A DNA stretch of 64,000 bases. Origin: Patescibacteria group bacterium (lineage in GTDB: Bacteria > Patescibacteriota > Patescibacteriia > JACRDY01). Positions 4,864 to 64,000 of this stretch are shown piece by piece. The stretch is taken from NCBI GenBank assembly GCA_041650515.1, contig JBAZLA010000002.1:167659-231658 (forward strand), read 5' to 3'. Below the pieces are notes generated by a model. The model was given only the letters and a program-made list of their open reading frames with translations. It did no database searches and was not told the origin of the DNA. A program made the position numbers and the translations under genes. Every line of letters begins with the position of its first letter. Position 1 is the first letter of the stretch.

Positions 4864-4868
4864 ATTCT

Positions 4869-4966
4869 TAAAGTATAGAGTATGAAGTATAGAGTATAGA
4901 GGGAAATTGTGCCCCACGAACGTGGAATTAAGCCCTTTATACTTCATACTCTATACTGCATACTAA
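4869..4966. repeat. Heptad-periodic inverted-repeat hairpin element (GTATAGA/GTATGAA arrays)
   Basis: Left arm aagtatagagtatgaagtatagagtatagag. Right arm tatacttcatactctatactgcatacta. Central ~36 nt has its own small hairpin ccacgaacgtgg. Lies between the uvrB start and the terminator of the HD gene. Confidence 0.75.
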
Positions 4967-10693: not shown

Positions 10694-10762
10694 AAATATA
10701 ATTTGTTCGCTGCAAGTTAATCAATATTTATTAATTCCAAAGCGCTAGACCTATAAACCCAA

Positions 10763-10932
10763 CGGGGGTTTGGGGGTGGGCTCGGCGCAGAATCCCGCCC
10801 CGACCTTGCTGACCCTAGCTAAGGGGCGGGACGGGTTAAACCGTAAGAAGATGAACAATGAATCGCGCCTCATGAGCCCCAGTCCGCCAGCTGGCGGATC
10901 TTTTGCTACTTTTTTGGCTTCAAAAAAGTAAA
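10763..10932 (+). repeat. ~160-nt structured intergenic repeat, copy A (diverged core)
   Basis: Begins GGGGGTTTGGGGG. Internal hairpin TCCCGCCCC...GGGGCGGGA. Ends CCCC-A-GT...CTACTTTTTTGGCTTCAAAAAAGTAAA. The 5' and 3' arms are complementary (a closing helix). Confidence 0.75.
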
Positions 10933-11078
10933 TAACTTTATGGTATAAACGTTCAGATCCCTCGACTCGGAGTTTACCCTGAGCGCAGCGAAGGGGTCGG
11001 GATGACAAATTGAATGGGCCTCGTGGAGTAGACGAAGATTGCTTCACCAGCTCACAATGACATATCAAATAATTAACT

Positions 11079-11114
11079 ACATGCTATGTACTGCGTACTA
11101 AGTACTAACATACA
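11079..11114. repeat. Single-arm GTACTNN heptad array fused to the dprA stop codon
   Basis: On the coding strand the dprA 3' end reads ...ATG TAT GTT AGT ACT TAG TACGCAG TACATAG. TAG plus the (TACNNAG) heptads is the same motif that follows the ppsA, O-antigen-ligase and FG-GAP-protein stops. Confidence 0.6.
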
Positions 11115-12192
11115 TCTGATTACCCAAATTTTTTACCTTACCCTTCATCTCCATCATCACCAAAACCGAGTTGACCACGCTAATTATTAAACCGCTCTGA
11201 GCGACTAATTCATCAATATGGACTGGCTCTTTAGACAGCAGAGACAAAATCACTGCCTCGGTTGGTGTTTCAGCTAGTACCTGTCGATTGGTAATATAAT
11301 TTTTGACTTGGCCTAGATTTAAAGCTTCCAAGATCTCACCAGCACCAGTAATTAACTTAGCTCCTTGTTTAATCAGATTATTAGGACCAACCGAGTTGGG
11401 GCTATAGATACTACCGGGCAAAGCAAAAACTTCGCGGTTTTGATCCAGCGCCGACTGAGCAGTGATTAAGGCGCCACTATCCTCAGCGGCCTCCACTACT
11501 ACGGTACCTAAACCTAGCCCAGAAATCAAGCGATTGCGTTGCGGAAAATTTTGGCGGTGACCCGGCATGCCGCAGGGAAACTCTGAAATTATCGCTCCAC
11601 CAGCAGCAACAATCTCTTTAATTAAATTTCGATTAGCGGCTGGATAAACGCTGTGCCAATCTAAACCCGTACCCAAGACGGCAATGGTGCGGCCGCCGGC
11701 AGCTAAAGTTGCCTGATGGGCAATCGAATCAATACCAAAAGCTAAACCACTGATCACCGTCACTTGATTGGCCACCAAACCTCTAACAATTTCGGCAGTT
11801 GTCTGCTGACCATAAATAGTTGGCTTGCGACTACCCACTACCGCTATACTAAACTTATCAGCCGCCGCCAACTGACCACGAATATAAAGCAAAGGTGGAT
11901 AATCATAAATTTCTTTAAGTAACGCTGGATACTCTTCGTCTTGATAATCTATCACTCTAATCCCCTCCTCGATTAATTGCTCAACTAAAAAGTCTAAATC
12001 TAGTCTCGCCCGATCAGCAACAATCTTCTGGGCGACGGCTAAGGAAAAACCAACGTTAATTAAATCACTTAAACTGGCTTGAAAAAAACTAGCCGCTGGT
12101 TTGAACCTGCTTAAAATCCGCACAAAACGCCGTGGGCCGATTGCCTCAATAGCTGAAATTCCCAACCAATATTTAAGCTCATTTTGATCCAT
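11098..12192 (-). CDS. dprA: DNA processing protein A (DprA/Smf)
   Basis: 364 aa. Rossmann-like core IAVVGSRKPTIYGQQ...VISGLAFGIDSIAHQ, and C-terminal winged-helix region. Upstream of topA on the same strand, as in many bacteria. Confidence 0.85.
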   Translation of the reverse strand: MDQNELKYWLGISAIEAIGPRRFVRILSRFKPAASFFQASLSDLINVGFSLAVAQKIVADRARLDLDFLVEQLIEEGIRVIDYQDEEYPALLKEIYDYPPLLYIRGQLAAADKFSIAVVGSRKPTIYGQQTTAEIVRGLVANQVTVISGLAFGIDSIAHQATLAAGGRTIAVLGTGLDWHSVYPAANRNLIKEIVAAGGAIISEFPCGMPGHRQNFPQRNRLISGLGLGTVVVEAAEDSGALITAQSALDQNREVFALPGSIYSPNSVGPNNLIKQGAKLITGAGEILEALNLGQVKNYITNRQVLAETPTEAVILSLLSKEPVHIDELVAQSGLIISVVNSVLVMMEMKGKVKNLGNQMYVST

Positions 12193-14280: not shown

Positions 14281-14354
14281 TATTTGTTATTTGATATTTA
14301 TTATTTGATTATCTGTCTCAACCTTCCAAATAACAAATATCAAATAGCTAATAT
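14281..14354. promoter_or_regulatory. Heptad-periodic palindrome (TATTTGN x4 / CAAATAN x3) filling the parA-parB intergenic gap; operator-like
   Basis: tatttgttatttgatatttattatttga ... caaataacaaatatcaaatag. The arms are reverse-complementary. The same core (ATATTTGTT..AACAAATGGCAAATATC(AAATATC)x3) recurs upstream of ppsA at 61281-61345. Confidence 0.55.
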
Positions 14355-15116
14355 TCACTCCGTCGCTAAAATTTCTCGCGCTAATCTTTCGTAGGCTCGC
14401 GCCCCTTTAGAAAACGGCCGATAATGCAATATTGACTGGCCATAGGATGGCGCCTCGGCTAACTGCACCGTCCGCGGAATAATCGACCGAAAAATCCGAT
14501 TAGGAAAATAACGATATAACTGCTCCATCACCTCGGTCGATAGTTTGTTACGACGATCATACATCGTCAGCACCGCGCCCAGAACTTTCAAATCAGGCTT
14601 CAGATTATCCCGAACTAAATTAATCGTATTGAGTAACTGGCCCAAACCTTCCAAGGCGTAGTATTCGGCCTGCACCGGGATTAACACTTCTTGGCCGGCC
14701 GTCAAACTATTAATAGTAATTAAACCTAGAGAAGGCGGACAATCAATCAGAATATAATCATACCCACCATGGCCTTCGAGCAAAGCCTGATGTAACTTAT
14801 ACTCCCGTTCGTTTTCGTTAACTAATTCAATACCCGCGCCAGCCAAAGAGATAGTCGCCGGTGCCACCTTTAGACCAACGTGTTTAGTCGGTATAGTCAC
14901 CTGGCTCAATCGATGTTGACCAGTCAGCACTTCATAAATACCCTTGCTCAAACCTTGATGATCAATCCCCAGACCCGAAGTAGCGTTAGCTTGCGGGTCC
15001 ATATCAACTAATAAAACGTTCTGGCCAGCTTGGGCTAAATAAGCAGCTAGATTAACAGCCGTGGTGGTTTTACCCACCCCGCCTTTTTGGTTAACAATCG
15101 AAATAATGCGTGCCAT
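14355..15116 (-). CDS. parA: Chromosome partitioning ATPase ParA/Soj
   Basis: 253 aa. Deviant Walker A motif NQKGGVGKTTTAVNLAAYLA. Confidence 0.9.
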   Translation of the reverse strand: MARIISIVNQKGGVGKTTTAVNLAAYLAQAGQNVLLVDMDPQANATSGLGIDHQGLSKGIYEVLTGQHRLSQVTIPTKHVGLKVAPATISLAGAGIELVNENEREYKLHQALLEGHGGYDYILIDCPPSLGLITINSLTAGQEVLIPVQAEYYALEGLGQLLNTINLVRDNLKPDLKVLGAVLTMYDRRNKLSTEVMEQLYRYFPNRIFRSIIPRTVQLAEAPSYGQSILHYRPFSKGARAYERLAREILATE

Positions 15117-15119
15117 AAT

Positions 15120-15199
15120 AAATCACCTAACGTGAGACGCCTAACTCCTAACAAAATTATGTACTTTTGTTACGTATCTCATGTTACGTGTTACGTAAA
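15120..15199. repeat. Heptad tandem arrays (CCTAACN and GTTACGT) between parA start and upstream gene
   Basis: cctaacgtgagacgcctaactcctaac ... gttacgtatctcatgttacgtgttacgtaa. Same 7-nt periodicity, but a different unit from the GTACT family. Confidence 0.5.
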
Positions 15200-17211: not shown

Positions 17212-17321
17212 AAATTGTCCTCTCTTTCTTACTTTATTCTAGCATAATATTTTAATTTAGTTAAGCACGGATTAAACTTCCATTTTATCCTTTATAAAGC
17301 AATTGAGCAGATACAAAATAG

Positions 17322-17478
17322 TGGGGGTTTGGGGTTGGCACGGGGCAGAGCTGAGCTCCAACCGTTTCTGATTACGTCGAGGAGCGAGGCGGGTAAAACC
17401 GTAGGCAGACCAACAATACTTTACCCCTTGCCAACCCAAAAACTTTTTTGATTACTTTTTTGGTTACAAAAAAGTAAT
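17322..17478 (+). repeat. ~160-nt structured intergenic repeat, copy B
   Basis: GGGGGTTTGGGGTTGGCACGGGGC...TTCTGATTACGTCGAGGAGCGAGGCGGG...GCCCCTTGCCAACCCAAAAACTTTTTTGATTACTTTTTTGGTTACAAAAAAGTAAT. Confidence 0.8.
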
Positions 17479-23317: not shown

Positions 23318-23415
23318 ATTGCGAGAACTCCGATGTAAATCGGAGGACGAAGCAATCTGGTGGATCATCCAGGAGATTGCTTCGCTCCGCTGGCTGGCGA
23401 AGCTCGCAATGACAT
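23318..23415. repeat. Palindromic element family 'TCATTGCGAG...CGAAGCAATCT', copy 1
   Basis: tcattgcgag...cgaagcaatct-ggtggatcatccagg-agattgcttcg...ctcgcaatgaca. Nested inverted repeats. In the divergent sigma-factor / HTH promoter region. Confidence 0.7.
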
Positions 23416-23540
23416 TTCTTGTTTTTTGTCCACAATATTCTAGACAAACATCAATAAAATATGCTATAATAACCTTATAAAACCTACTAATTATAAAAAT
23501 CTGGGATAGGATATATTATCTCGTCCCCACCCTAAATATT

Positions 23541-30828: not shown

Positions 30829-32697
30829 CTAAAAATCAACCACTTTACCACCCTGATTACTAGCTCGCTTATCACTATACAAATCAGTCGTAACTGTCCC
30901 AACATACTTTTCAATAATTCGACCGGTGATTTTATCTTTGCCAGTAATCTTAATATCTTGAATAAGCGGCGCCAGTCTGCCGATCTGATCGACTCGAGGG
31001 GTCAAGATAACAGCAAAACCAGCTTGCGGCGCGATACTCAAATCACCGGCAAATTTGGCCACTTCCCCCGGTTGCCAGCTAATCTCGCGCGTAACCACAT
31101 CAAAGGCTTGGCTAGCGCCCTGACCAACTGATTCCTTGGCTAACCAAGTTACATTATTAGGCAAAGTACCAGACACTCGAATATCAGTGACGTCGTTGTA
31201 AGAATTTAAAATTTTACCCATGATCCAGTACTTAGTTTCGACACCAACTACTGGCGGCAACGGACCAATGCCTAGCTGTTCGCCCTCCAAAGTATAATAA
31301 CGAGCTAGAACAACCAGCTCTAAATTAGTAGTCATAATATTATTAATCGGAGATAACTCGGCGTCAAAAGCGGTTTTTTGGCCTTGGAACTCCAAAGTGT
31401 AATTAACTTTAGGCACTAAAGTTAAATAGGCCGGCGACTCCGAACCAATAGTTTTGGTCTGAGTTTTTATTTTAAATTTCACTTCACCACCTTGACCCGG
31501 CTCCAACCGAGCTAAATCGGGAAAATTATCTGGGTTGAGGATCAAGGTTTTACCCGTCAAACTAATCGACTGCTCGGTGCTAAAAGTGCTGACGTTATAC
31601 AATGGGTCAGATAAATCTAAAGTAATATTAACATTTTCAATCGTCTGGTTTTCCTGATTCGAATATTTAATCAAATATTCAACCTCTTCACCAGGTAATG
31701 GCGAATAATCAGCTAGACCATTGACCAGGGCCGCCACTAAAAACTTGGGGTAGAAGATATTAGTTGATAAAACAGCTTGATTAGCCAAAAGCGGTTGCTC
31801 TTGGTGATTACAAAAGACTTGGAAGGTAGTTTTAACTTTAACCGGCGACTCAGCCTTATCCGAATTAATTTTTCCCCGGACTTTGATCGCTTTAGTCTCG
31901 CCAGCTTCTAACGTAGCTAGCGACCAGGCGCCACTAATTACCTGGGTGTCAGAATTAATCAGCGTGAAGTCACTAGACCATTGTGGTATCAGCTTAATAT
32001 TATTCAATGGTTGAGAATAATTGTTTTGGATAACCAGATAAAAATCAAACGGGCTATTACTAGCGACCACCAACGGCGCCTCAACTTTTAGATCCAAAAC
32101 TGAACCTTCAACTTGGTAATTAGCCTGAGCGGTTCTTTCTTCAAACCAATTCATATCGCGGCCCGATACGGCCTGCTGATAATAATCCAGGCGAGCGATG
32201 ACTTTTTGCTTTGTTTGATATGGCGCCCAAACCTCGCCGGTTAACTCGAGCTGACCACCGGTTTTGGGCGGTAAATCGCCAATTAATAAAATATGCTTCT
32301 CTGGATCATAACGCTCGTCATTGGCTTTGATAAACACAAAATCAGCTGGCAAATTCATAACTATCCTAGCGGCCGTCAACTCCTGACTGCGACTAGAATT
32401 ATGGTAATAAACCGTATAAATCGTCTTGGCACCACTAAGCACTGGCTGACTGACACTAATATCTAGCTTAACTTGCAACGAGACCACCCACTTAGTAAAA
32501 ATAAAAGAAATAAACACATTAATCAGAATCAAACTAACAACCGCTAGACCAAGGATTAAATCCGCAATCAAATGCTTACGGTTATACTTATAACGAACTC
32601 GATAACGCCTACCCAGCCGCTCAACCGTAAAATTAAAAGGACCAATGACGAGCTGACGAATAATTTTTTTGTGGATATCCATATAATTGTGGTACAC
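30829..32697 (-). CDS. Membrane-anchored hypothetical protein (possible surface/adhesin-like beta-rich protein)
   Basis: 622 aa. The tracked start is GTG-encoded, and an internal ATG (MDIHKK) is plausible. TM helix LILGLAVVSLILINVFISFIF. No recognisable catalytic motif. Terminator at 30771-30803. Confidence 0.5.
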   Translation of the reverse strand: MYHNYMDIHKKIIRQLVIGPFNFTVERLGRRYRVRYKYNRKHLIADLILGLAVVSLILINVFISFIFTKWVVSLQVKLDISVSQPVLSGAKTIYTVYYHNSSRSQELTAARIVMNLPADFVFIKANDERYDPEKHILLIGDLPPKTGGQLELTGEVWAPYQTKQKVIARLDYYQQAVSGRDMNWFEERTAQANYQVEGSVLDLKVEAPLVVASNSPFDFYLVIQNNYSQPLNNIKLIPQWSSDFTLINSDTQVISGAWSLATLEAGETKAIKVRGKINSDKAESPVKVKTTFQVFCNHQEQPLLANQAVLSTNIFYPKFLVAALVNGLADYSPLPGEEVEYLIKYSNQENQTIENVNITLDLSDPLYNVSTFSTEQSISLTGKTLILNPDNFPDLARLEPGQGGEVKFKIKTQTKTIGSESPAYLTLVPKVNYTLEFQGQKTAFDAELSPINNIMTTNLELVVLARYYTLEGEQLGIGPLPPVVGVETKYWIMGKILNSYNDVTDIRVSGTLPNNVTWLAKESVGQGASQAFDVVTREISWQPGEVAKFAGDLSIAPQAGFAVILTPRVDQIGRLAPLIQDIKITGKDKITGRIIEKYVGTVTTDLYSDKRASNQGGKVVDF

Positions 32698-32781
32698 AGT
32701 ACTCAGTACATAGTACCTAGGAAGCCGCTAGTCTAGCGCTAATTAACTTCCTAAAGTACTGGGTACTATGTACTGGGTACT
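32692..32781. repeat. Heptad-periodic inverted-repeat hairpin element (GTACTNN arrays)
   Basis: Left arm gtacacagtactcagtacatagtacc. Right arm agtactgggtactatgtactgggtact. The arms are reverse-complementary. The inner loop taggaag...cttccta is itself palindromic. The element fills the whole gap between the stop of one minus-strand gene and the start of the next. Confidence 0.8.
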
Positions 32782-32783
32782 TT

Positions 32784-34793
32784 TTAAAATACACTCAAAC
32801 TGGTGGTTAAAATTTCTTTTTGGTTATCACCATTAATATCATTAACCATTACTTCGATCCCATCACGGTTACCGACGTCGAAAGCCAAAAAGGTGTTACC
32901 AAGCTGTTTACCTCGAGAATCATAAACTTTAACCTCGGGCTTACCACCATAGCCAGGTGCCGCTACAATCTCGGCTGCCCCGTCGCCATTAATATCCCCC
33001 ACCGCGACATTAACCCCGCCACGAAAATTAGCATCAAAAGCAAACCAGCCGGCCGATAGTAGTTTACCATCTTTATTAAAAATCCGAATCTGTGGCCCGC
33101 CGCCAACGCCAGCACCGGCGATAATCTCGCTGGTGCCATCGCCATTAAGATCGCCCACCGCGACATTAACCCCGCCACGGTAGTCAGAACCATAAGCGAA
33201 AAAGCCCGGATTAATCAATCTACCCTGAGCATTAAAAACTCGAATCTGCGGCCCGCCGCCTTTTTCTGTGCCAGTAATAATCTCAATCGTACCATCGCCA
33301 TTAAGATCGCCAAATGACAAATTAATCCCCTTATTATATTTCTCGCCATAAGGATAAAAAGTAGTTTCTAACGTGCCAGCCGAGTTATAAATAGCCACCG
33401 AGCGATCACCGGCGATCAAAGTCTCCAGTGAACCGTCAACATCAATATCGGTAGTCAGAATTTGGCTACTGCCGGGATATTGAGCTTTATAGGTAAAAAA
33501 CCCACCCCGCTGCCGCTGACCGGTATTATCAAAAATACGCACAAACGACCCGTTAACAAAAGTAGAGCCAATGATCTCGGCCAATGGCTTAAGCAGTAAA
33601 ATGCCATCATTAGAATTTAGCCTTAAATAATTGATAATCGAGCCATCGTTGGTCAATGGATCTTGGGTACCTTTAATTTTTTCCAGCTCTTCACGACCCA
33701 AGTTGACTGCCTGACGGTCGTTAGTTGAATTGACAAACACAACACCTTTCTCAAAATCCCGACGCCAAACGCCGCTACTAATTGTCGTACTATTATTATG
33801 TAAGACATCCTGCGGTCCAGAAGTTGGTTGGCCCAAAGCAACATCATACTCGTCAAACCACCAAGTTTGGCCATGGCTAGTATCACCAAAATCAAAACTA
33901 TACAGACCATTACCTAATAAAGTGCTAGTTAGACCAAAACGCATCTTCTGATAATCAGCCTGGTTACCGGTATTAGCGGTATTAGCATTAACAATATGCA
34001 AAATTGTGCCAGAATAAGCCGACGTCTTGAGATAGTTACTTTGATCATTCGACCAACTATACGGAAAATTTTCAAAAACAACGCCGTTAAGCCGGTTGCC
34101 AAAACAAGTTGTACCGTTACCAATAATTATTTTGTCTTTCCCAATCAGGTTGCGAGTCTGATCAATAATTACCGCCTCACCGTTGCGCCAGGCTGGATCC
34201 GCCACGCTAGCCGTATCCTGACTACAGTTATTGTCCAAATCATAATTACTAATAAAGTAGCTAATATTATCCCAAGTATTATCCAATAAAACACCGTCCC
34301 AAAGACCACTGCTCATGATTTTGGTATTGATAAATTTAGGCAAAAAAGTATTCCAGCGGTCACCGTTAACCAAAGGACAATAGTCGCTGATATTTAATAG
34401 CCAACTACCTGACCACCAGCTGATTTTGTTTCCTGCTGCGTCTTTGAGATACCAAGCTACCGGGATACTATCCGCTAATTGACGCGAGAGCAAATAACTC
34501 TCACTGGTCAAATTAACCTCTTTGATTTCCTGACTAGCTAAATAAGCTAAAATTTTTATTTGCGGATTTAATTGGCGCAGACGGCGAATCTTATCCGGAT
34601 TGCGCACCTGTTGATCCATATCCAAAACGACTAAATCCCATTTGGCTAAATTGGTAATATCCTGATCACTTAATTGCCAACTATAAAAAAGATTAGCCAA
34701 TTTGGGGTACTCCTCCATCTGGCCAAAATTTAGTGGATATAAAAAAGAGGTTAGAATTAAAATAGCAATAATTGTGGGGAAAATACGTTGCAT
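32784..34793 (-). CDS. Secreted protein with N-terminal glycoside-hydrolase-like TIM-barrel-type domain (tentative) and C-terminal FG-GAP/VCBS repeats
   Basis: 669 aa. Signal peptide MQRIFPTIIAILILTSFLYPLNFG. Repeated GDLNGDGTIEIITG, GDLNGDGTSEIIAGAG and GDINGDGAAEIVAAPG motifs are FG-GAP-like. The N-terminal domain call is low confidence. Confidence 0.6.
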   Translation of the reverse strand: MQRIFPTIIAILILTSFLYPLNFGQMEEYPKLANLFYSWQLSDQDITNLAKWDLVVLDMDQQVRNPDKIRRLRQLNPQIKILAYLASQEIKEVNLTSESYLLSRQLADSIPVAWYLKDAAGNKISWWSGSWLLNISDYCPLVNGDRWNTFLPKFINTKIMSSGLWDGVLLDNTWDNISYFISNYDLDNNCSQDTASVADPAWRNGEAVIIDQTRNLIGKDKIIIGNGTTCFGNRLNGVVFENFPYSWSNDQSNYLKTSAYSGTILHIVNANTANTGNQADYQKMRFGLTSTLLGNGLYSFDFGDTSHGQTWWFDEYDVALGQPTSGPQDVLHNNSTTISSGVWRRDFEKGVVFVNSTNDRQAVNLGREELEKIKGTQDPLTNDGSIINYLRLNSNDGILLLKPLAEIIGSTFVNGSFVRIFDNTGQRQRGGFFTYKAQYPGSSQILTTDIDVDGSLETLIAGDRSVAIYNSAGTLETTFYPYGEKYNKGINLSFGDLNGDGTIEIITGTEKGGGPQIRVFNAQGRLINPGFFAYGSDYRGGVNVAVGDLNGDGTSEIIAGAGVGGGPQIRIFNKDGKLLSAGWFAFDANFRGGVNVAVGDINGDGAAEIVAAPGYGGKPEVKVYDSRGKQLGNTFLAFDVGNRDGIEVMVNDINGDNQKEILTTSLSVF

Positions 34794-34996
34794 AGTGTTG
34801 TTACCTTTTTGAAGACAAAAAAGTAGCCAAAAAATCGCTGGGGCTCATAAGGCGCGACTCACTGTTCAACCTTAGTTCATCCTACCCATCCCGCTCCCAA
34901 GGAAAGATCAAAAAAGCCGGGACGGGACTACGCGCCATATTCGCCCCAGACCCCAATTATTTCTAAATGTTCAACGCGACTAAATAATTAAACTCG

Positions 34997-35155
34997 GCGG
35001 GGTTTGGGGTCGGCACGGGGCCGGAGCCGAGCTCCGACTCGTTCTGATTACGCCGAGGAGCGAGGCGAGTTAAACCTTCAGCGGGTAAACAACGCTTTGC
35101 CCCTTGCCGACCCCAAAACTTTTTTATGTTACTTTTTTAGTTATAAAAAAGTAAC
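34997..35155 (+). repeat. ~160-nt structured intergenic repeat, copy C
   Basis: GGGGTTTGGGGTCGGCACGGGGC...TTCTGATTACGCCGAGGAGCGAGGCGAG...GCCCCTTGCCGACCCCAAAACTTTTTTATGTTACTTTTTTAGTTATAAAAAAGTAAC. Compared with copy B, the T-to-C change in the 5' arm is compensated by A-to-G in the 3' arm. Confidence 0.8.
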
Positions 35156-36375: not shown

Positions 36376-37429
36376 ATAATTTTTGATATTCGCTAATCAT
36401 AGTTTCTAGGCCAAATTTTTCTTTGGTCAAAGCCTGACCTTGCAAACCAAGGCTCTTTCTTAATTCCGGATCTAGAATTAATTGACGCAGAGCCTGAGCT
36501 AAGTTTTTTTCATCTTTGGCTGGTACCAAAATCCCAGTTTGGTTAGGTAAGACCACCTCAGGAATACCACCAACCCGAGTAGCCACCACCGGCAACCCCG
36601 CCAACCCCGCCTCGATTAGAGCAATCGATAATCCTTCTTCTAGCGAAGGTAGGACAAAAATATCCATCTGCTCTAGATAACGTTTGATATCCAACTGCCA
36701 ACCAAAAAACTTGATTCGGTGATCTAGATCAGAGCGCCGCGCTAAGTCTTCGAGCCGGCCACGGTCCGCTCCGTCACCTACCAACCAACATTCCCAATTT
36801 AATTCCCGGATCCGATCTAGGGCCTTAATTAAATAAGTATAACCTTTATCTCGCTCGAGCCGACTAATCGAGCCAATGATCAACCGATTGTGCTGGCGTT
36901 GTTTTTCCAGCTTAGCCATTTTAACACCATTATGGATAACGCTAATCTTGTTTGGTTCGATTTTTTCTACCTGCACCGAATAGCCCTTAGCGGCTTGAGA
37001 GACCGCCACAATCCGCTGAGTTACTTTGGCTAAGCGATATTTCAACCATTTTTTTATCTTGCCTTCTTGATAATTTAAACTATGCTCAGTGGAAATAATA
37101 ATTGGCTTACCGTCGCGTCTCGCTAGCCAAGCGGCCAAGCGGCCATAGGTATCAGCGCCAAATAAATGAGTGTGAATAATATCCGGCTGTTCGGCTTTTA
37201 AATATTGATATAACCGCCATAAAGTACCCAAACCTAATTTGGTCGATTTGCCAATGATTTTAACTTCAATCCCCTGCTGCAGAAGTTTTTCCGCCAAAAT
37301 CCCGCCCCGGACCACCGCCACGACTTTAACTTGGTATTTATCTCTGGGTAAATGAGTGGCCAAATCCACCACCATTTTTTCGGCGCCACCAATACCCAGG
37401 GTCGCTACAATTTGAATTATTTTGATCAT
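36356..37429 (-). CDS. Glycosyltransferase family 4
   Basis: 357 aa. N-terminal VATLGIGGAEKMVVDL, and EGLSIALIEAGLAGLPVVATRVGGIPEV. Overlaps the next GT4 gene by 20 nt (operon). Confidence 0.8.
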   Translation of the reverse strand: MIKIIQIVATLGIGGAEKMVVDLATHLPRDKYQVKVVAVVRGGILAEKLLQQGIEVKIIGKSTKLGLGTLWRLYQYLKAEQPDIIHTHLFGADTYGRLAAWLARRDGKPIIISTEHSLNYQEGKIKKWLKYRLAKVTQRIVAVSQAAKGYSVQVEKIEPNKISVIHNGVKMAKLEKQRQHNRLIIGSISRLERDKGYTYLIKALDRIRELNWECWLVGDGADRGRLEDLARRSDLDHRIKFFGWQLDIKRYLEQMDIFVLPSLEEGLSIALIEAGLAGLPVVATRVGGIPEVVLPNQTGILVPAKDEKNLAQALRQLILDPELRKSLGLQGQALTKEKFGLETMISEYQKLYESFIS

Positions 37430-37434
37430 GAGCT

Positions 37435-37559
37435 AGTGCTTAATACATAGTACATAATACAATAGTAACAAATAACTAACTTCCCCGGTCAACTGCAACC
37501 TTGGAATTCACCGAATAATACTGGAATTAGTAGCTGCGTACTAGGTACTGTGTACTAGG
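37435..37559. repeat. Heptad-periodic inverted-repeat hairpin element (GTACTNN arrays)
   Basis: Left arm atacatagtacataatac. Right arm gcgtactaggtactgtgtactagg. The right arm contains the TAG stop (complement at 37555-37557) of the O-antigen-ligase gene. Confidence 0.65.
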
Positions 37560-38916
37560 TGCTATTTTTAACAAACTTCGTCGCGGCTAAAGCAACGCCT
37601 AACGGAAACCACATTTTGGAAACAAAATAAGACGTCTGAAAAAGCTGAAAAACCATAGCGCCAATAGCGACCACTAAACAAATCAAAACCACGCTCGACC
37701 ATGGGTCCTGTCTAGTCAAGGCAAATCGGTAAGCCCAGACAATCCGCCACAAAACAAAAACCAATAATAAAGTAAAGGTAAACAAACCCAGAACGCCCGA
37801 CTCAGCCAATAGTTTTTGGATCACTCCGTGCGACTCTTGAGTATCGCCAAACTCCAGCATAAAAATCGGATCACTGGCTACCAGCTCAGTAAAACTACCT
37901 GCGCCATTACCTAATAATGGATGTTTGTGCCACGACTGGATGGCAATCGTTGTCAGATACAATCGATGCCAATTAGAGCTCTGGGCAATATAGCTGGTCG
38001 AAAACAAATACATATAAATCAAAGCCGGCGAGAGACAAATAGCGATCAAGACTGTGTAAACCACAATCTTTTGCCACTGGCGCCAGTACTGGATTAGAAA
38101 TAAGATTAATAACTCCACAATCAAGGCAATCCAGCCTGTCCGCGAAAAAGTCGCTAAATTAATCAAAACCATTAATAAGACACCCAAAAATAACCAACGT
38201 TTTCTGTTGCCTTCTCTAGCCTGCCAAATCAAAATTACGCTAAACGGAATAGCGGCGATCAGCACCTCGGCAATCAGATTATGATTCCAGCCTAATGGCC
38301 GGATACCAAAGAGCGCTAACGGCACCGCCCGCCGAAAAAAGCCCTCAGCGCCGACACCAGCTATCAACGACCAGAGACCCATGATCGCCACACTAATACC
38401 CAAGAAATAAAAAATCTTAAAAATGTTTTTGAGGATTTTTTTGTCCTCAATCAGATTGTAAGGCAAGATAACAAACATCAGATAAAAAAATGACAACGGC
38501 CGCAGAATATATTTGATAGTCAAAAGATTGTCAGCCGCATTAATCAATGACAAACTAGAAGCAATAATAAACAAGACAAAATAAAATAAACCCGGGAAAT
38601 TGGCCCAAGATAGCTTTTGTTCACCTTTGAAATGGCGCACTAACGCCTTGATCGCCCAAGCGACAAAAACTACCATTGCTAAGACATCAACATAGGGCAC
38701 GTTTAAGTCTTTATAAATTATTTCCAGATAAGTCAGCGGGTACAAAAAAGTAATCAAATAAAGGCCCAGGGTGGTATAACGGTAAAAAAGGCCAATTGCC
38801 AAAACCAGAATTAGGACAAATAAAATATAGCTGGGTTTTATTATCACAGCTAAAACCGCCAAAATTACCAAAAAAATGGCTAGCAAATAAATTTGGGCCT
38901 GATTTTCTTTGTTCAT
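37555..38916 (-). CDS. O-antigen ligase / Wzy-like polytopic membrane protein
   Basis: 453 aa, roughly 10-12 predicted TM helices, and a large periplasmic loop with H/R-containing motif typical of the O-antigen ligase (Wzy_C) family. Sits in the glycosyltransferase cluster. Confidence 0.62.
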   Translation of the reverse strand: MNKENQAQIYLLAIFLVILAVLAVIIKPSYILFVLILVLAIGLFYRYTTLGLYLITFLYPLTYLEIIYKDLNVPYVDVLAMVVFVAWAIKALVRHFKGEQKLSWANFPGLFYFVLFIIASSLSLINAADNLLTIKYILRPLSFFYLMFVILPYNLIEDKKILKNIFKIFYFLGISVAIMGLWSLIAGVGAEGFFRRAVPLALFGIRPLGWNHNLIAEVLIAAIPFSVILIWQAREGNRKRWLFLGVLLMVLINLATFSRTGWIALIVELLILFLIQYWRQWQKIVVYTVLIAICLSPALIYMYLFSTSYIAQSSNWHRLYLTTIAIQSWHKHPLLGNGAGSFTELVASDPIFMLEFGDTQESHGVIQKLLAESGVLGLFTFTLLLVFVLWRIVWAYRFALTRQDPWSSVVLICLVVAIGAMVFQLFQTSYFVSKMWFPLGVALAATKFVKNST

Positions 38917-39639: not shown

Positions 39640-41280
39640 TCAGGGCGCGTAGTTGGCCCGGACCATGTACTCCTCGGTCCACGCCGGGTTGGAGTAGTAG
39701 TCCTCCAGCCAAGCGTCGGAACATTCATCAAGCGGGAGCACGGTGGGCGGCGTGGTGCAGGACGACGCGTAGTACTCACCCAGACCGGCGGGGCTGGCCT
39801 TCCAACGGAGTTGGCTCCACTGTCCCAAATGGACGACGGTGAAGACTCCATTGATGTCCAACCCGCAGTCTTGGCAGTTGCAGATGAGCTGCGCCGCGAA
39901 GGGGTGCTCGTCGGTGCCGTTGCAGCGGTCACCCGGCGGGGTGCCCGACTCGGTCACCGCCACCAGGAATTCCACCGTCGCGCTGGCCGCGCCGCACGTG
40001 TCGATGAAGTACAGCCGCAGAACGTGAAAGCCGACGGTCAAAGAAGCGGTGCCGTAGTGGTACTCGTAGGGTCCTTCGCCCTGCGACCACGAGGAACAGA
40101 CAACCGTCGGGGGTAACAACGACGGCACATAGGCGCTGCCGTCCACGGCGAACTGCACCCGGCCGCGCTCGGTGACGCTGCTCAGGTTGCAGTCGGCGTC
40201 CAGGTAGTTGACCACAATGTCCAGGTTCGCGCCCTGGGCAAAAATGATCGGGTCGCTGGCCGGCACGCCGTCGACCAAAACCTGGTTGAGCCCGATGATC
40301 GGCGCCGTGTTGTCCTGGCACTCGGTGCTGATGGTGGTACATGAGTCGTTGCCCTCGTCGCACTGTTGCGTCAAGGGGTTGCACTCGTCCGGGCCGACGT
40401 TGACGCACTGGCCAACCTGGCACTCGTCCAAACCGTCGCACCAGTAGCCGTTGTTGCAGGCGCTGCCGTTGATCTTGTCGGTCCAGCCCGTGGGGTTGAG
40501 CCCGGGCTGGCACTCTTCGCACTGATTCAGGGGGTTGTCGTCCCCGGTCTGGTAGACGTACCCGCTGATCGTGCACTCGGTGGGCACAGGGATCAGATCG
40601 CATTCGTCGTTGCTTTCGTCACACACCTCGGTGATCGGATCGCACTCGTCGGGACCCACGTTGGCGCAGACGCCGGCCTGGCACTCGTCCAAACCGTCGC
40701 ACCAGTAACCGTTGTCACAAACCGCACCGTTGGGACGGACGGTCCAGCCCGTGGGGTTGAGCCCGGGCTGACATTCTTCGCAGGGATTCGCGGGGTTGAT
40801 GGCGCCGCTCTCGTAGTGATAGCCGTTGATGATGCATTCGTTGTCGTCGTCATCGTCGTCATCGTCACCCAACGGATCGCATTCATCCGCGGACTCGTTG
40901 CAAACCTCCGTGAGGGGGCTGCACTCGTCCGGCCCGACGTTCACGCAGTCGCCGGCCTGGCACTCGTCCGGGCCGTCACACCAATAGCCGTTGCTGCAAA
41001 CCGCACCGTTGGGACGGACGGTCCAGCCCGTGGAGTCGAGCCCGGGCTGACATTCTTCACAGGAATTCGCGGGGTTGATGGCGCCGCTCTCGTAGTGATA
41101 GCCGTTGATGATGCATTCGTTGTCGTCGTCATCATCCAGGGAGATGTCATCATCGGTGTCGCCACCGTTGTCGTCGTCATCGCCGCCGCCGTACTCGCAG
41201 GCGACAACGAAGCCGACAATCAGGAAAAAGAACAAGGCGACCAACAGTCCGTTGGTCAGGGGGGTTCTCGTCGTCTTCAT
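39640..41280 (-). CDS. Secreted Cys-rich lipoprotein with three tandem ~90-aa Cys-rich modules and poly-Asp linkers (GC-rich island)
   Basis: The ORF is tracked to 41307, but the RBS 'ggagg' lies 7 nt before the ATG at 41280 (MKTTRTPLTNGLLVALFFFLIVGFVVAC = signal plus lipobox). Repeats: NECIINGYHYESGAINPAN.CEECQPGL..TGWTVRPNGAVC.NGYWCDG.DECQAG.C.NVGPDEC. Poly-D runs DDDDNGGDTDDD and DDDDDDDD. The region is much more GC-rich than the rest of the window. Confidence 0.6.
   Translation of the reverse strand: MKTTRTPLTNGLLVALFFFLIVGFVVACEYGGGDDDDNGGDTDDDISLDDDDDNECIINGYHYESGAINPANSCEECQPGLDSTGWTVRPNGAVCSNGYWCDGPDECQAGDCVNVGPDECSPLTEVCNESADECDPLGDDDDDDDDNECIINGYHYESGAINPANPCEECQPGLNPTGWTVRPNGAVCDNGYWCDGLDECQAGVCANVGPDECDPITEVCDESNDECDLIPVPTECTISGYVYQTGDDNPLNQCEECQPGLNPTGWTDKINGSACNNGYWCDGLDECQVGQCVNVGPDECNPLTQQCDEGNDSCTTISTECQDNTAPIIGLNQVLVDGVPASDPIIFAQGANLDIVVNYLDADCNLSSVTERGRVQFAVDGSAYVPSLLPPTVVCSSWSQGEGPYEYHYGTASLTVGFHVLRLYFIDTCGAASATVEFLVAVTESGTPPGDRCNGTDEHPFAAQLICNCQDCGLDINGVFTVVHLGQWSQLRWKASPAGLGEYYASSCTTPPTVLPLDECSDAWLEDYYSNPAWTEEYMVRANYAP
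40300..41130. repeat. Tandem ~280-bp DNA repeats (3 copies; the two at higher coordinates are near-identical) inside the Cys-rich lipoprotein gene
   Basis: Blocks such as cgcggggttgatggcgccgctctcgtagtgatagccgttgatgatgcattcgttgtcgtcgtcatc occur at 40791 and 41071. accgttgggacggacggtccagcccgtgg occurs at 40726 and 41006. The period is 280 bp. Confidence 0.8.
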
Positions 41281-41337
41281 TTCGAAACCTCCGTTTGCAG
41301 AAGACATTACTCACTTCGTTTCTGTCGCTTCGGTGTT

Positions 41338-42888: not shown

Positions 42889-42958
42889 TGACCCGAAGAT
42901 CAGCAGGAGGAAGACGGCTATCAGGAACTTTCCTTTGGTCTTCGTGACTTCCTCCTTT

Positions 42959-44014: not shown

Positions 44015-44078
44015 AATTGCCTCCTTCCTACGTCTTTTGCGTAGGTATCAGAAAGGTTGAATCACCGTTTTAAGACTC

Positions 44079-44127: not shown

Positions 44128-44258
44128 AGATTGCTAGAGTTAAAAACACTAATGACAAAAATTAACACTTTATAATAACTTTATAACTTTTGAACTTTAT
44201 AACTTGTTTTTGATGTCTCTCTACACTGACATGTTTGTCAACGAACTAACCAGCCAGC

Positions 44259-44307: not shown

Positions 44308-44389
44308 AGCACTCAGTCTGGTCTATTAACCGCTAGGCTAACAGACCAATTCAATGCTTTTTTGTTTTCTTGCTTTTTTGCTTTCTTGA

Positions 44390-51839: not shown

Positions 51840-51938
51840 AGTACACAGTGCAGAGTACTATAGTACACAGTAACTTATAACCCAGCGACGACAGATTTTA
51901 GATTTCTATGGACTATGTACTAGGTACTGTGTACTATT
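51840..51938. repeat. Heptad-periodic inverted-repeat hairpin element (AGTACNN/GTACTNN arrays)
   Basis: Left arm agtacacagtgcagagtactatagtacacagta. Right arm ctatgtactaggtactgtgtactat. Lies between the GC-rich islet terminator and smpB. Confidence 0.7.
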
Positions 51939-51950
51939 TCTTGGTATAAT

Positions 51951-52543: not shown

Positions 52544-52941
52544 GGGGATGACGGGTTTCGCTAGGAAGATTATTGATTAAACTAGGCAAGTCGAGCTAGT
52601 ACTCTCGTAAAACAGGCTAAAAAATATAAGTGCCAACTTATACAACAAAGCCAAACAAGCAGTAGCTTCGCTATTTGCTGTTCCGGCCTTTGCTCCAGTC
52701 GTCGCCTAATTGCGTACGACTCATCGGTCCCTGATGTCTAATAGGGGTTTTACCGGTGTTATACCTTAGACTAGATAAACCGGACGGTCTGGGGCCGTTT
52801 ATCAAAAATTACCAGACTAGGTAAGCTCGGGTTTTGTCCGTTTTCCACTTAGCTGACCGAACCAAACCAAATGTGACTACGCTTGTAGAGCTAGCTTATT
52901 CAACTTTCTAGACGTGGGTTCAACTCCCACCATCTCCACCA
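52544..52941 (+). ncRNA. ssrA: tmRNA (ssrA)
   Basis: 5' end GGGGAUGACGGGUUUCG pairs with the 3' acceptor strand CAUCUCC-A-CCA. tRNA-like T-arm GGGTTCAACTCCCACC. CCA is encoded. Directly downstream of smpB. A candidate tag ORF ends ...AFAPVVA-TAA, but the frame is not verified. Confidence 0.85.
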
Positions 52942-58483: not shown

Positions 58484-58545
58484 TTTTTATAATTACTGTC
58501 AAGCATAAATTCAAAACCACTTTCTAAAAATCTAAGAAAATAAAC

Positions 58546-58904: not shown

Positions 58905-58927
58905 CTCTGTACTGTGTACTAAGTACT
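58905..58927. repeat. Single-arm GTACTNN heptad array fused to the ppsA stop codon
   Basis: Coding strand: ATG AAA TAG TACTTAG TACACAG TACAGAG. Nearly identical to the sequence after the dprA stop. Confidence 0.6.
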
Positions 58928-61277
58928 ATTTCATTTTACTCACGGCCTGCCAAGTTTTTAAAACTGAATCGGAAGTCAGCGATAACGAATCAATCCCGGC
59001 TTTGACTAAAAATTTAGCAAAGTCTGGAAAGTCCGATGGCGCTTGGCCGCAGATACCAATTTTGCGTTTGGCTCGATGGGCTTCTTTAATCACCTGCTTA
59101 ACCATTATTTTGACCGCTTCATTGCGTTCGTTACCAACCGTAGAGACCAAAGTGGAATCACGATCAAGACCCAAAACTAATTGGGTTAAATCATTAGAAC
59201 CAATTGAAAAGCCATCAAAAATCTTAGCAAACTCCTTAGCCAAAATAACATTAGACGGAATCTCGCACATCACATAGAGTTCTAAACCATGCTGACCGCG
59301 TCGCAGACCGTTCTGAGCCATGATTTTAACCACCTTTTGTCCTTCTTCTGGCGTCCGACAAAAAGGAATCATCACCGTCACATTAGTTAGACCCATCTCT
59401 TCGCGCACCTTTTTGATTGCCTGACATTCTAATTCAAAAGCCGGCTGGTAACTCTCACTGTAATAGCGCGACGCGCCCCGCCAGCCAATCATCGGATTTT
59501 CTTCTTTTGGTTCGTAGAGCTTGCCGCCGATCATCGTCGCGTATTCATTAGTTTTGAAATCCGAAGTCCGGACAATCACTGTTTTGGGGTAAAAACCAGC
59601 CGCCAGCCGGGCAATACCATGCGCTAGACGATCAACAAAATATTCCCGCTTATCTTCGTAACCAACGGTTAGTTTATCAATTTTATTTCTCAATCGCCGG
59701 TCTTTAATCTTCTTATAATTTAATAAAGCCAGAGGATGAACCTTAATATAATTGGAAAAAATAAACTCTAATCGAGCTAACCCCACCCCGTCATTAGGAA
59801 TCTGACAATCAGTAAAGGCCAGCTCTGGGTTGCCAAGATTCATCATAATCTTGATTCTGGGCCGACCCAGTTTTTTAAGATTAATCTTGCGTACTTTGAA
59901 TGGCAATAACCCTTGGTAAACATTTCCCCGCTCGCCCTCGGCGCAACTAACCGTTACTTGATCCCCATTTTTAAGTTTACGGGTAGCGTTTTTAGTGCCA
60001 ACAATACAAGGAATGCCCAGTTCGCGGGAAACAATCGCTGCGTGAGATGTCCGGCCACCTTGATCAGTGACAATCGCCGCGGCCACTTTCATCACCGGTT
60101 CCCAATCTGGGTCAGTAATGGTGGTCACCAAAACTTCGCCACGCTTAAAACGACTAATCTCTCTGACATTTTTGATTACTCGCACGCCACCTTGACCGAT
60201 CTTAGAGCCAATAGCCAAACCAGACAAAATCGCCTTGCCTTTATGAGTTAAATAGTATTCTTCAAAAATATTCTGGTCCCGGGTTGACTCCACTGTTTCC
60301 GGCCGCGCTTGAACGATATAAAGCTTTTTATTCAGACCATCCTTAGCCCATTCAATATCCATGGGCATCTTATAATGCTGCTCAATAATTTGCCCCCACT
60401 TAGCGAGTTGATCGATCTCTCGATTATTCAAAACAAAACTCTGCCGTTGCTTTTTGGGCGTATTGATATTAATTGTCGCACCAGTCAAACCAAATTTATT
60501 TGCATAGATTAATGTTTTCTCCTTACTGCCTAGCTCTTTAGAAATAATCGCGTTGGTTTTTTTAAAATATAAATACTCATCAGGGACTACTCGGCCCTTA
60601 ACGACATTTTCCCCCAGCCCCCAGGCCGCATCAATCATCACCACATCGCGAAACCCCGAATCAGTATCCAGAGTAAACATTACGCCCGACGAGGCTAAAT
60701 CCGAACGCACCATTTTTTGCACGCCAACGGAAAGAGCCACCTGATTATGCAAAAAACCCTTATCCACTCGATAAGAAATCGCTCGATCAGTAAATAGTGA
60801 AGCAAAACAACGCTTGCAAGCTAGTAGAATATTCTCTTTACCTACGACGTTTAAAAAAGACTCTTGCTGACCAGCAAAAGAAGCGCCGGGCAGATCTTCA
60901 GCGGTTGCTGACGACCGCACGGCCACACTGCCACCGCCAAGCTTTTTATAATCAGCCAAAATTTGTTTTTCCAGATCGGCTGGCCAAGCACCAGCTAAAA
61001 TCAGTTGTCGGATCCGATTGCCGCGTCGGCTGAGATCTTTAACTTGCCTAATATTTAAACCAGCCAAAATTTGTTTGATTGGTTTTTCCAAAGAATTAAA
61101 GCGTAAGAAATAACGATAAGCCGCGGCCGTAATGGCAAAACCATCAGGAATACTAATACCCCGTTTAGTCAGCTTATTATACATTTCACCTAACGAAGCG
61201 TTCTTGCCGCCGGCTAAAGCTAGATCACCAATACCAATTTCCGAAAACCACAAGATTAATTGGTCTCTTTTAAACAT
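58926..61277 (-). CDS. ppsA: Phosphoenolpyruvate synthase (pyruvate, water dikinase)
   Basis: The ORF is tracked to 61313 with a probable start at the internal Met (MFKRDQLILWFSE) at 61277. PEP-utilising enzyme His domain GGRTSHAAIVSRELGIPCIVG. ATP-grasp N-terminal and PEP-binding TIM-barrel C-terminal (ICGQAPSD). Confidence 0.85.
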   Translation of the reverse strand: MFKRDQLILWFSEIGIGDLALAGGKNASLGEMYNKLTKRGISIPDGFAITAAAYRYFLRFNSLEKPIKQILAGLNIRQVKDLSRRGNRIRQLILAGAWPADLEKQILADYKKLGGGSVAVRSSATAEDLPGASFAGQQESFLNVVGKENILLACKRCFASLFTDRAISYRVDKGFLHNQVALSVGVQKMVRSDLASSGVMFTLDTDSGFRDVVMIDAAWGLGENVVKGRVVPDEYLYFKKTNAIISKELGSKEKTLIYANKFGLTGATININTPKKQRQSFVLNNREIDQLAKWGQIIEQHYKMPMDIEWAKDGLNKKLYIVQARPETVESTRDQNIFEEYYLTHKGKAILSGLAIGSKIGQGGVRVIKNVREISRFKRGEVLVTTITDPDWEPVMKVAAAIVTDQGGRTSHAAIVSRELGIPCIVGTKNATRKLKNGDQVTVSCAEGERGNVYQGLLPFKVRKINLKKLGRPRIKIMMNLGNPELAFTDCQIPNDGVGLARLEFIFSNYIKVHPLALLNYKKIKDRRLRNKIDKLTVGYEDKREYFVDRLAHGIARLAAGFYPKTVIVRTSDFKTNEYATMIGGKLYEPKEENPMIGWRGASRYYSESYQPAFELECQAIKKVREEMGLTNVTVMIPFCRTPEEGQKVVKIMAQNGLRRGQHGLELYVMCEIPSNVILAKEFAKIFDGFSIGSNDLTQLVLGLDRDSTLVSTVGNERNEAVKIMVKQVIKEAHRAKRKIGICGQAPSDFPDFAKFLVKAGIDSLSLTSDSVLKTWQAVSKMK

Positions 61278-61280: not shown

Positions 61281-61345
61281 TATTTGTTCCAAATAACAAA
61301 TGGCAAATATCAAATATCAAATATCAAATATCAAATATCAGCAAT
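61281..61345. promoter_or_regulatory. CAAATAT heptad tandem array (x4) plus inverted ATATTTGTT half-site upstream of ppsA, downstream of pyk
   Basis: tatttgttccaaataacaaatggcaaatatcaaatatcaaatatcaaatatcagc. Related to the parAB intergenic palindrome. Confidence 0.55.
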
Positions 61346-63704: not shown

Positions 63705-63810
63705 GTACTAACATAAGTATGCGGTATGCAGTATGCGGTATACAGGGACTAAACTCCACCATTCGTGTAGATTAACCCCCGCATACTGCATACTAATCCC
63801 TGCATACTAC
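63705..63810. repeat. Heptad-periodic inverted-repeat hairpin element (GTATGCN arrays)
   Basis: Left arm agtatgcggtatgcagtatgcggtatac. Right arm cgcatactgcatactaatccctgcatactac. Upstream of the 156-aa membrane protein gene. Confidence 0.75.
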
Positions 63811-64000
63811 TAAAAACCCCACCGTCCTAGTTAACAGGAAATCGGCGGGGTCTTAGAAAAAACTTTAAATTTTAGCAACCTACATTCCCATATCCATGCC
63901 GCTCGGCCCTTGGCTCTCACGGCAACAGCTCTTTTTATCAGGTAAATCAGTAACCACCGCTTCAGTAGTAATAAAAAGTGAAGCAATTGAAACAGCATTC

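Follow-up and report, generated by a model that had tools for sequence, protein, structure and literature searches.

Why should several unrelated genes stop just where a short tandem repeat begins? The question was raised by the window analysed here, the whole stretch of 64,000 nucleotides (nt) taken from a Patescibacteria group bacterium (GenBank assembly GCA_041650515.1, contig JBAZLA010000002.1, positions 167,659 to 231,658 of the forward strand). A sequence-only reading of this DNA had found that four genes, dprA, the Wzy_C/O-antigen-ligase gene, ppsA and an FG-GAP/GHL15 gene, terminate exactly at the start of an array of GTAC-containing units. The answer to which we give slightly more than even weight is that the arrays are slippage-prone heptameric simple-sequence repeats filling the intergenic spacers of a compact genome, and that the embedded stop codon is a by-product.

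The names of the four genes, all of which are on the minus strand, were confirmed by Pfam. The arrays found at their 3' ends are the following, with the folding free energy (dG) of the hairpins and with z-scores calculated against dinucleotide shuffles:

11079..11106, minus strand: single-arm AGTAC array after dprA (AGTACTT AGTACGC AGTACAT AGCATGT); no hairpin, z = +0.27.
37436..37557, minus strand: AGTAC hairpin with a degenerate 3' arm, from the Wzy_C gene to a GT4 glycosyltransferase gene (ATG 37429); dG -33.8 kcal/mol, z = -1.7, a weak fold.
58907..58928, minus strand: single-arm AGTAC array after ppsA (stop 58928-58926), reading (T)AGTACTT AGTACAC AGTACAG AG; no hairpin, z = -1.1.
32692..32781, minus strand: AGTAC hairpin from the FG-GAP/GHL15 gene (TAA 32786-32784) to a DUF11 gene (likely ATG 32683-32681), with a 5' arm of four AGTACNN units (32781-32756) and a 3' arm of four NNGTACT units (32716-32692); dG -41.6 kcal/mol, z = -5.9.

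The open reading frame (ORF) of dprA (11098-12192) ends with GTT AGT ACT TAG and is followed by TACGCAGTACATAG; its stop codon (11100-11098) falls on the junction of heptads 1 and 2, and heptad 1 provides the last two codons. The Wzy_C ORF (37555-38916) ends with ACC TAG, then TACACAGTACCTAGTACGCAG, the stop (37557-37555) being composed of a T and the AG of the first AGTAC, and the stop has the same geometry in ppsA (ORF 58926-61313), which ends with AAA TAG and continues as TACTTAGTACACAGTACAGAG. In these three genes TAG is made of T and the AG of an AGTAC. The fourth site also reads as described: the FG-GAP/GHL15 gene (ORF 32784-34793) ends with TTT TAA, followed by AA and AGTACCCAGTACATAGTACCCAGTAC, and its stop lies outside the array, 2 nt upstream. 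The repeat unit, which had been read as a 6-nt GTACNN, is 7 nt long and consists of AGTAC and two free bases. The string GTACNNNGTACNNNGTAC, which has three GTAC at period 7, occurs 8 times in the window against 0.00 expected (100 shuffles). An independent Logan assembly shows no difference over 11.2 kb (100% identity), three arrays included, thus the arrays are not assembly artefacts.

It had also been suggested that insertion of the element may repeatedly create stop codons, in which case the C-terminus of the host protein might be truncated. The protein ends speak against truncation. DprA has 364 amino acids (aa), compared with 363-367 in the 14 best aligned homologues; its last two residues, ST, where the consensus is AR, are encoded by the AGT ACT of the first heptad, and they are the sole difference at this end. 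The PEP-utilizers_C domain of PpsA extends to residue 794 of 795, in pyruvate kinase Pfam PK_C reaches residue 477 of 480, and ParA aligns with its relatives to residue 250 of 253. Judged by these alignments and domain boundaries no gene is truncated or notably extended, and the repeat has taken only the last 0-3 codons and the stop.

Pyruvate kinase and ParA were included in this comparison because their genes end in heptads of another sequence. Three further elements of the window are needed to describe this:

61290..61340, minus strand: single array of about seven units (TGATATT five times, TGCCATT, TGTTATT) filling the spacer between the pyruvate kinase gene (pyk) and ppsA (likely ATG of ppsA 61277-61275).
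14281..14357, minus strand: TATTTGN/CAAATAN hairpin filling the parA-parB spacer; dG -23.4 kcal/mol, z = -7.0, 21-bp stem.
15125..15196, minus strand: ACGTAAC/GTTAGGN hairpin between a gene of 440 aa and parA; dG -21.8 kcal/mol, z = -3.8.

The stop of the pyruvate kinase gene is the TGA of the second TGATATT unit (61333-61331) and that of parA is the TGA of a degenerate first unit (14357-14355). The suggestion that these stop codons come from the repeat unit is borne out by TAG at three AGTAC arrays and by TGA at two TGATATT arrays, and the phenomenon is not limited to the four genes, as similar stop overlap was seen in these two genes and in metagenome contigs. The 440-aa gene ends with a TAA (15202-15200) 3 nt before the first unit, and the ATG of parA is 8 nt past the 3' arm of the same hairpin; the ATG of parB is 12 nt past the 3' arm of the hairpin at 14281..14357. 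Stop codon usage in the window is TAA 29, TAG 14 and TGA 5, and the stops found at the arrays are TAG, TAG, TAG and TAA (AGTAC) and TGA and TGA (TGATATT). TAG in three of the four genes abutting AGTAC, against a background of ~26%, has by itself a P of ~0.06. The pattern suggests that the stop type tracks the abutting heptad, and because the numbers are small it is suggestive only.

A search of the window for any 4-mer recurring at least three times at period 7 detected 11 arrays, and reading all spacers added one further type. Tandem Repeats Finder reported period 7 or 14 at the same sites; it often preferred the 14-nt period, indicating that alternate units are more alike. Four core types are present, AGTAC, AGTAT, TGATATT (CAAATA on the other strand) and ACGTAAC. 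The arrays form ten elements, seven of them inverted pairs round a unique centre and three of them single arms (after dprA, after ppsA and between pyk and ppsA), which occupy about 10 of the ~36 window spacers longer than 25 nt and cover 85-100% of the spacers in which they lie. All arrays are intergenic, and the overlap with real ends of coding sequences is at most ~10 nt. An apparent overlap with the starts of uvrB and the DUF11 gene is due to the mechanical ORF calls, which are over-long and run upstream into the heptad arrays (4864-4947 and 32681-32697). In four junctions the stop lies between -2 and +3 nt from the 5' arm and the next start 3-12 nt past the 3' arm; the 3' array edge is 3-15 nt before start codons both in the window and in other phyla. 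The remaining three elements have a different position:

4872..4964, minus strand: AGTATRN hairpin just upstream of uvrB (likely ATG 4866-4864); dG -34.8 kcal/mol, z = -6.6, perfect 20-bp stem.
51840..51935, plus strand: AGTAC hairpin between a canonical terminator and the TGGTATAAT box of smpB; dG -31.1 kcal/mol, z = -3.6, no adjacent stop.
63717..63811, minus strand: GTATGCN/NGCATAC hairpin; dG -46.7 kcal/mol, z = -6.5.

These three hairpins stand behind canonical terminators, before the next gene and not near a stop. The first is 235 nt from the upstream stop and follows a canonical terminator, the last is flanked by an upstream terminator-like GGTGGGGTTTTT and by a TTGATT-N-TATAAT promoter-like site of the 63191-63661 gene.

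The parA-parB junction offers a comparison with relatives. In related Patescibacteria/Saccharibacteria the parA-parB spacer is usually 0-20 nt long or the genes overlap; here it is 74 nt and consists entirely of the hairpin. With a spacer of 0-20 nt any element added there must touch the stop codon. The comparison of gain and loss was limited to the length of this spacer, and the nearest relatives are distant (the best DprA homologue is 60% and the best ParA locus 66% identical), this lineage of metagenome-assembled Patescibacteria genomes being sparsely sampled. If ancestral spacers of the genome were in general 0-20 nt long, an array that fills the spacer would begin at the upstream stop and end a few bases before the next start. 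The heptads themselves would do the rest, for they contain stop-capable triplets: AGTAC yields TAG when a T precedes its AG, TGATATT and TGAGTAC each include TGA, and ACGTAAC includes TAA. Since 7 equals 1 modulo 3, successive units present these triplets in all three frames, and an array edge creeping over the last unconstrained codons would end the frame after one to three units. A stop lying in the first heptad would then follow from the geometry of compaction and stop-rich heptads and not from a signal to the ribosome.

The opposite reading is that the hairpin is purposely placed with respect to translation. A terminating ribosome would melt the stem and free or reach the next start (coupling, re-initiation or a shunt-like mechanism), or it would stall and tune the upstream gene; E. 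coli REP elements within 15 nt of the stop are reportedly able to tune the output of the upstream gene (work of Liang, Rudd and Deutscher, 2015). The four junctions with both stop and start close to the arms fit this reading. Further evidence bearing on it came from metagenomes, which were searched for three AGTACNN units, 10-40 nt and two NNGTACT units. The inverted AGTAC design was found in at least 120 metagenome stretches with a GC content of 31-73%, of which 79 were hairpin-type among the matches listed; the counts given in this and the next paragraph likewise refer to the matches listed. There were 59 array sides with the stop of an ORF (200 aa or longer) facing them at -30..+60 nt: 19 overlap the stop, 21 are at 0..+9 and 19 at +10..+60, and 40 of the 59 are within -9..+9 nt, which is within the ribosome footprint. 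When 53 elements were classified by their flanks, 34 were stop/start, 11 stop/stop and 8 start/start, many of the first class with the stop at -8..+9 and the start at +1..+14.

Two of the metagenome elements (L165 and L172) occupy the same atpA-atpG junction, and in both the upstream TAG overlaps the first AGTAC, thus the geometry favoured by a ribosome-based placement is kept in orthologues. The free positions, the loop and the number of units differ between the two although the coding flanks are ~93% identical, which indicates fast, slippage-type turnover of the array. In soil contigs of ~56-60% GC (these two and L170, L177, L178, L221, L255 and L264) the outermost unit of AGTACC-type hairpins is repeatedly AGTTGCC/GGCAACT, located 2-5 nt before the start of unrelated genes; atpA-atpG is one conserved site of this kind. 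Against purposeful placement stands the lack of a fixed register: the distances spread continuously from -9 to +20 nt, and the small peaks at -8 (TGA), -2 (TAG) and -1 (TGA or TAA) are the offsets at which AGTAC units form stops. Eleven metagenome elements lie between convergent genes. In the window three of the seven hairpins are far from stops and behind canonical terminators, and dprA and ppsA, where the embedding is clearest, have single arms with no hairpin and no adjacent downstream gene. That no Shine-Dalgarno sequence follows the hairpins was considered as a sign of coupling and discarded, because ~85% of the window genes have none anyway. On balance we regard placement for the sake of the ribosome as unlikely. 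The data neither require nor demonstrate the proposed signal for ribosome release or for the mRNA 3' end: three of the ten arrays are far from stops, the register is not fixed, and at least four unrelated cores behave alike. A dedicated ribosome-release role is not needed to account for the embedded stops; an mRNA 3'-end role of the hairpin, as modelled below, is possible.

The distances were similar in viruses. Runs of four AGTACNN were found in 67 viral stretches and were mostly perfect, e.g. (AGTACTG)n, with stop distances clustering at -1..+4 nt and start distances at +1..+10 nt. The high-GC phage contig IMGVR_UViG_3300035125_000073 (L083, L088, L143, L145) has at least five (AGTACTG)n-type arrays lying between a TGA stop and the next ATG, and the last unit is often GGAGTAC, by which a Shine-Dalgarno-like GGAG comes to lie ~11 nt before the start. 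The window is poor in such sequences: in only about 7 of 48 genes is there a GGAG, GAGG or AGGA no farther than 22 nt from the start, which suggests a Shine-Dalgarno-poor genome, possibly with leaderless mRNAs. Several TATAAT boxes abut the ATG, e.g. TGGTATAAT before smpB (51943-51950).

All seven inverted pairs fold, with dG values of -22 to -47 kcal/mol and, in six of the seven, z-scores of -3.6 to -7.0; the seventh, with its degenerate arm (37428-37560), reaches only z = -1.7. In two hairpins the stem is perfect over 20-21 bp. No fold was obtained for the single arms. The arms of a pair are separated by 12-35 nt of unique sequence. Intrinsic (Rho-independent) terminators could be ruled out as an explanation, since the stems have no directly following T run: none was found after the heptad hairpins of the window, although ordinary intrinsic terminators do occur there, and a terminator scan of 1-20 kb listed canonical terminators, e.g. 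12494-12469, and no heptad hairpin. A promoter or terminator consensus in the arms was discarded as well: the background of the scan was high (60 promoter-like sites against 37 expected), and no hairpin was flagged as terminator. In the Rfam scan of the window only transfer-messenger RNA (tmRNA) and tRNA passed the gathering score and no heptad element was matched; the hairpin at 32600-32850 gave only sub-threshold miRNA-like matches. Strand asymmetry as a sign of an RNA-level role was uninformative, the sense strand folding better in only four of the seven hairpins. In the metagenome set (41 elements) permutation of the free dinucleotides among the 3'-arm units changed the fold by a mean of -0.64 kcal/mol (p = 0.26), i.e. 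the fold became no weaker, from which it follows that the core is conserved and not the exact complementarity of the arms. The copy numbers of the two arms in this set were uncorrelated (r = 0.05), and with the permutation test null, selection on exact complementarity through covariation at the free positions is unsupported in these metagenome elements.

Another idea is that of a small mobile palindromic DNA, MITE- or REPIN-like, which would integrate at stop codons or beside them, with TA or TAG as possible targets, and carry AGTAC ends of its own. Relative to related genomes the parA-parB element is indeed an insertion, the AGTAC design occurs in many unrelated contigs and phages, the outer unit AGTTGCC/GGCAACT is recurrent in soil contigs, and the loops of the two AGTAT elements resemble each other weakly (an equal or higher score in 16 of 500 shuffles). 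Yet no loop of an AGTAC hairpin is matched elsewhere in the window, every copy has its own free positions and copy number, no target-site duplication is visible at the borders of the 4872, 14281 and 32692 hairpins, and no transposase was found among 20 window ORFs scanned against Pfam. Moreover, with at least four cores in the window and dozens in other genomes, many separate mobile families, all of period 7, would be required. We therefore hold this explanation to be rather improbable. As for known families, membership in REP/REPIN was rejected, near-identical copies being absent, with unique loops and with free positions that differ in each copy, and so was membership in MITE, since the terminal inverted repeats of a MITE would be flanked by a target-site duplication and none is visible at the hairpins 4872, 14281 and 32692.

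A third possibility is that the heptads are binding sites. The omega ribbon-helix-helix repressor of plasmid pSM19035 binds contiguous 7-bp WATCACW units, and HutP binds UAG spaced at period 7, its site consisting of two sets of three UAG. The arrays could accordingly be iterons of an oligomerising protein, operator- or centromere-like, or RNA repeats bound by a HutP-like ring protein. The constant 5-bp core with two free positions resembles the omega heptads, both direct and inverted orientations occur, two hairpins flank parA, and the dinucleotide permutation left the fold no weaker while the cores are kept. On the other side, one protein cannot account for at least four unrelated cores here or for the many cores in other heptad-rich contigs, the arms are 12-35 nt apart, unlike the contiguous omega sites, and most elements follow stops in co-directional junctions and are not at promoters. 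UAG is present in some units only, and no candidate binding protein was identified. Omega-type iterons were rejected on account of the at least four cores, the split arms and the mostly post-stop location. A HutP-type RNA site was rejected as well: UAG needs a T at base seven, which was found, read by eye, in 6 of 13 5'-arm units, and the conserved part is AGUAC. A protein-binding array is, in our judgement, the least credible of the readings considered, and only a slim chance is given to it.

We return to the slippage-prone simple-sequence repeat. As a control, 80 unrelated bacterial parA loci (1.34 Mb) were searched in the same way. The density of period-7 arrays was 0.172/kb in the window (11 arrays) and 0.021/kb in the controls, a difference of ~8-fold; periods 6, 9 and 12 were at control level and periods 5, 8, 10 and 11 were rare. 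Contigs with AGTAC hairpins also bear heptad arrays without GTAC, at 0.203/kb and often as inverted pairs, and such arrays with different cores point to a process independent of sequence. A link with restriction-modification was excluded, because GTAC occurs 139 times against 113 expected and is not depleted in the ORFs, as avoidance of a restriction site would demand. Three properties of a heptameric simple-sequence repeat are present: 7-nt units follow head to tail in at least three copies, period 7 is in excess, and the location is intergenic. The units differ at two of seven positions and the two assemblies are identical; orthologous metagenome loci vary in unit number and in the free positions.

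The course of events may have been as follows. Units with a constant core of 5-6 nt and one or two free positions would arise and turn over in short tandem runs by slippage of 7 nt (and 14 nt), tolerated only outside coding sequence. Most elements are two inverted runs round a centre of 12-35 nt, able to form an imperfect hairpin of 20-35 bp in DNA or RNA. Besides the slippage origin we infer a stem-loop in the RNA, located between cistrons or at the 3' end of the message, where it might block 3'-exonucleases, serve as a processing site or cause partial termination. By analogy with REP elements such a role is plausible. A ribosome standing on the adjacent stop would melt the 5' arm of the hairpin.

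Several points weigh against this explanation. The plain decay of perfect repeats fails to explain why nearly every unit has five constant and two variable positions, nor does it explain the dominance of AGTAC/AGTAT, found in 8 of 11 array arms of the window. The tight 3' edge before start codons and the overlap conserved in orthologues could reflect function. Variation in copy number was not seen in the two assemblies available, which are identical, and an RNA-level role of the hairpins is something we infer. It must also be noted that the window is a small sample, in which seven arrays abut a stop, that the metagenome query demanded intact AGTAC cores, and that the metagenome ORFs were called mechanically, which in high-GC DNA gives spurious ORFs. 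In the boldest reading, heptad hairpins could constitute a distinct, sequence-independent class of intercistronic element, ranging from Patescibacteria to high-GC soil bacteria and phages. The 5' base of such an element would hold the stop and its 3' base would present the next start, the terminating ribosome would control unfolding, processing or re-initiation, and period 7 would ensure both closure of the frame and fast tuning of the stem length by slippage. We consider this bolder view a long shot.

Other repeats of the window lie beside the arrays. Downstream of the ppsA array there are other repeat elements and a canonical terminator. A structured-looking repeat of ~190 nt is present on the minus strand in at least five copies (~10700-10930, 17250-17450, 34800-35000, 57600-57800 and 58500-58700). 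It reads TTACTTTTTTGWAACYAAAAAAGTAAC ... GTTTTGGGG ... CGGCGTAATCAGAA ... CCCCAAACCCC, shows apparent compensatory changes between copies and matches nothing in Rfam. Within the copy beside dprA the Logan contig breaks off, which also makes ORF 10751-11068 doubtful. A second, palindromic family was found at 10950-11060, 23320-23440, 58700-58880 and 62780-62865, of the types GTCATTGCGAG..GAAGCAATCT..AGATTGCTTCGCTC..CTCGCAATGAC or GTCATCCTGAG..GAGCGAAGCGAAGGATCTC; copies of it adjoin the single-arm AGTAC arrays after dprA and ppsA. Period-8 tandem arrays (ATAACTTT, 3.9 copies, and TGCTTTCT, 4.2 copies, at 44175-44205 and 44355-44388) share a 345-nt spacer between convergent genes with two long hairpins. 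A sharply bounded island of 4.4 kb (~39650-44050) has ~60% GC compared with 43% in the window and contains long ORFs overlapping on both strands; these had no Pfam match and the island no Rfam match. The island may be of foreign origin, or it may encode a large RNA not yet described. The tmRNA gene directly downstream of smpB (52544-52941) and the tRNA-Asp gene (56014-56089) are both ordinary.

The results show that, in a streamlined Patescibacteria genome, heptad repeats can account for about a quarter of the longer spacers, mostly as hairpins reaching from stop to start, and that the design recurs in soil bacteria (e.g. atpA-atpG) and in phages. There are practical consequences: gene callers extend ORFs into the arrays, the last codons and the stop of several genes are derived from the repeat, and assemblies break in neighbouring repeat families. 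An effect of the hairpins on mRNA ends or on translational coupling, if proven, would make them a simple, widespread and fast-evolving control element.

It is instructive to compare these arrays with known heptamer systems. No account of AGTAC arrays, or of heptad repeats in Patescibacteria, was found within the literature searched. Closest are the GGGAATC heptamers of Xanthomonas and the GGGGAYT heptamers of Nostoc, which lie close to or overlap stop codons, prefer about four units, occur in part as inverted pairs able to form stem-loops, and are enriched between co-directional and depleted between divergent ORFs (Rehm et al. 2015, PMC4692102). Our arrays share with these G-rich repeats the 7-nt tandem structure, a usual number of about four copies, the intergenic location in co-directional and seldom in divergent junctions, the strong bias toward stop codons and the occurrence of inverted pairs. 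Unlike theirs, the cores of the window are AT-rich or palindromic and could not build a G-quadruplex. The form that prevails here is the inverted-pair hairpin, and several cores are found side by side in a single genome, that of a Patescibacteria metagenome-assembled genome. The TAACTGA repeats of marine Beggiatoaceae, some cyanobacteria and Bacteroidetes give stop codons in forward orientation, overlap the ends of coding sequences by at most 18 nt, and are found in 2-6 copies just upstream of starts that mostly have no Shine-Dalgarno sequence; the same frame argument was made for them (MacGregor 2015, PMC4679880). Short intergenic arrays of heptamers, location before starts mostly without Shine-Dalgarno, and an overlap of a few codons with gene ends are common to both, whereas TAACTGA is a single heptamer in perfect direct repeats with essentially no inverted pairs or structure, and the window arrays have free positions and mostly form hairpins.

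Heptanucleotides have been described as the most abundant class of long simple-sequence repeats in many bacteria and have been ascribed to polymerase slippage (Mrazek 2007, summarised in PMC4679880), and the cyanobacterial STRR are reportedly heptanucleotide repeats too (Mazel et al. 1990). The arrays of the window are like them in that period 7 exceeds the other periods not divisible by 3, in the restriction to particular genomes and in the intergenic location. They are unlike them in being imperfect, with 5+2 units in arrays of 3-7 units that are identical in two assemblies, the long repeats being mostly described as perfect or near-perfect and as candidates for phase variation. With the REP/BIME/REPIN elements of Enterobacteria and Pseudomonas they have in common that they are intergenic imperfect palindromes of tens of bases, found in operons or after genes, often within 15 nt of the stop, and presumed to form stem-loops in the mRNA. 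REP families consist of many near-identical copies with a conserved GTAG-type 5' end and are spread by the RAYT transposase; the copies in the window have no common loop or free positions, their arms are 7-periodic, and no RAYT was found among the 20 ORFs scanned. The omega heptads are similar in the 7-bp unit, the constant 5-bp core and the direct as well as inverted orientation, and different in being contiguous sites of a single consensus located in promoters, where the window has split arms and multiple cores after stops. Heptamers abutting stop codons are, in summary, already known elsewhere; what the present arrays add is a new host group, new cores, units of the imperfect 5+2 type and a predominance of the hairpin.

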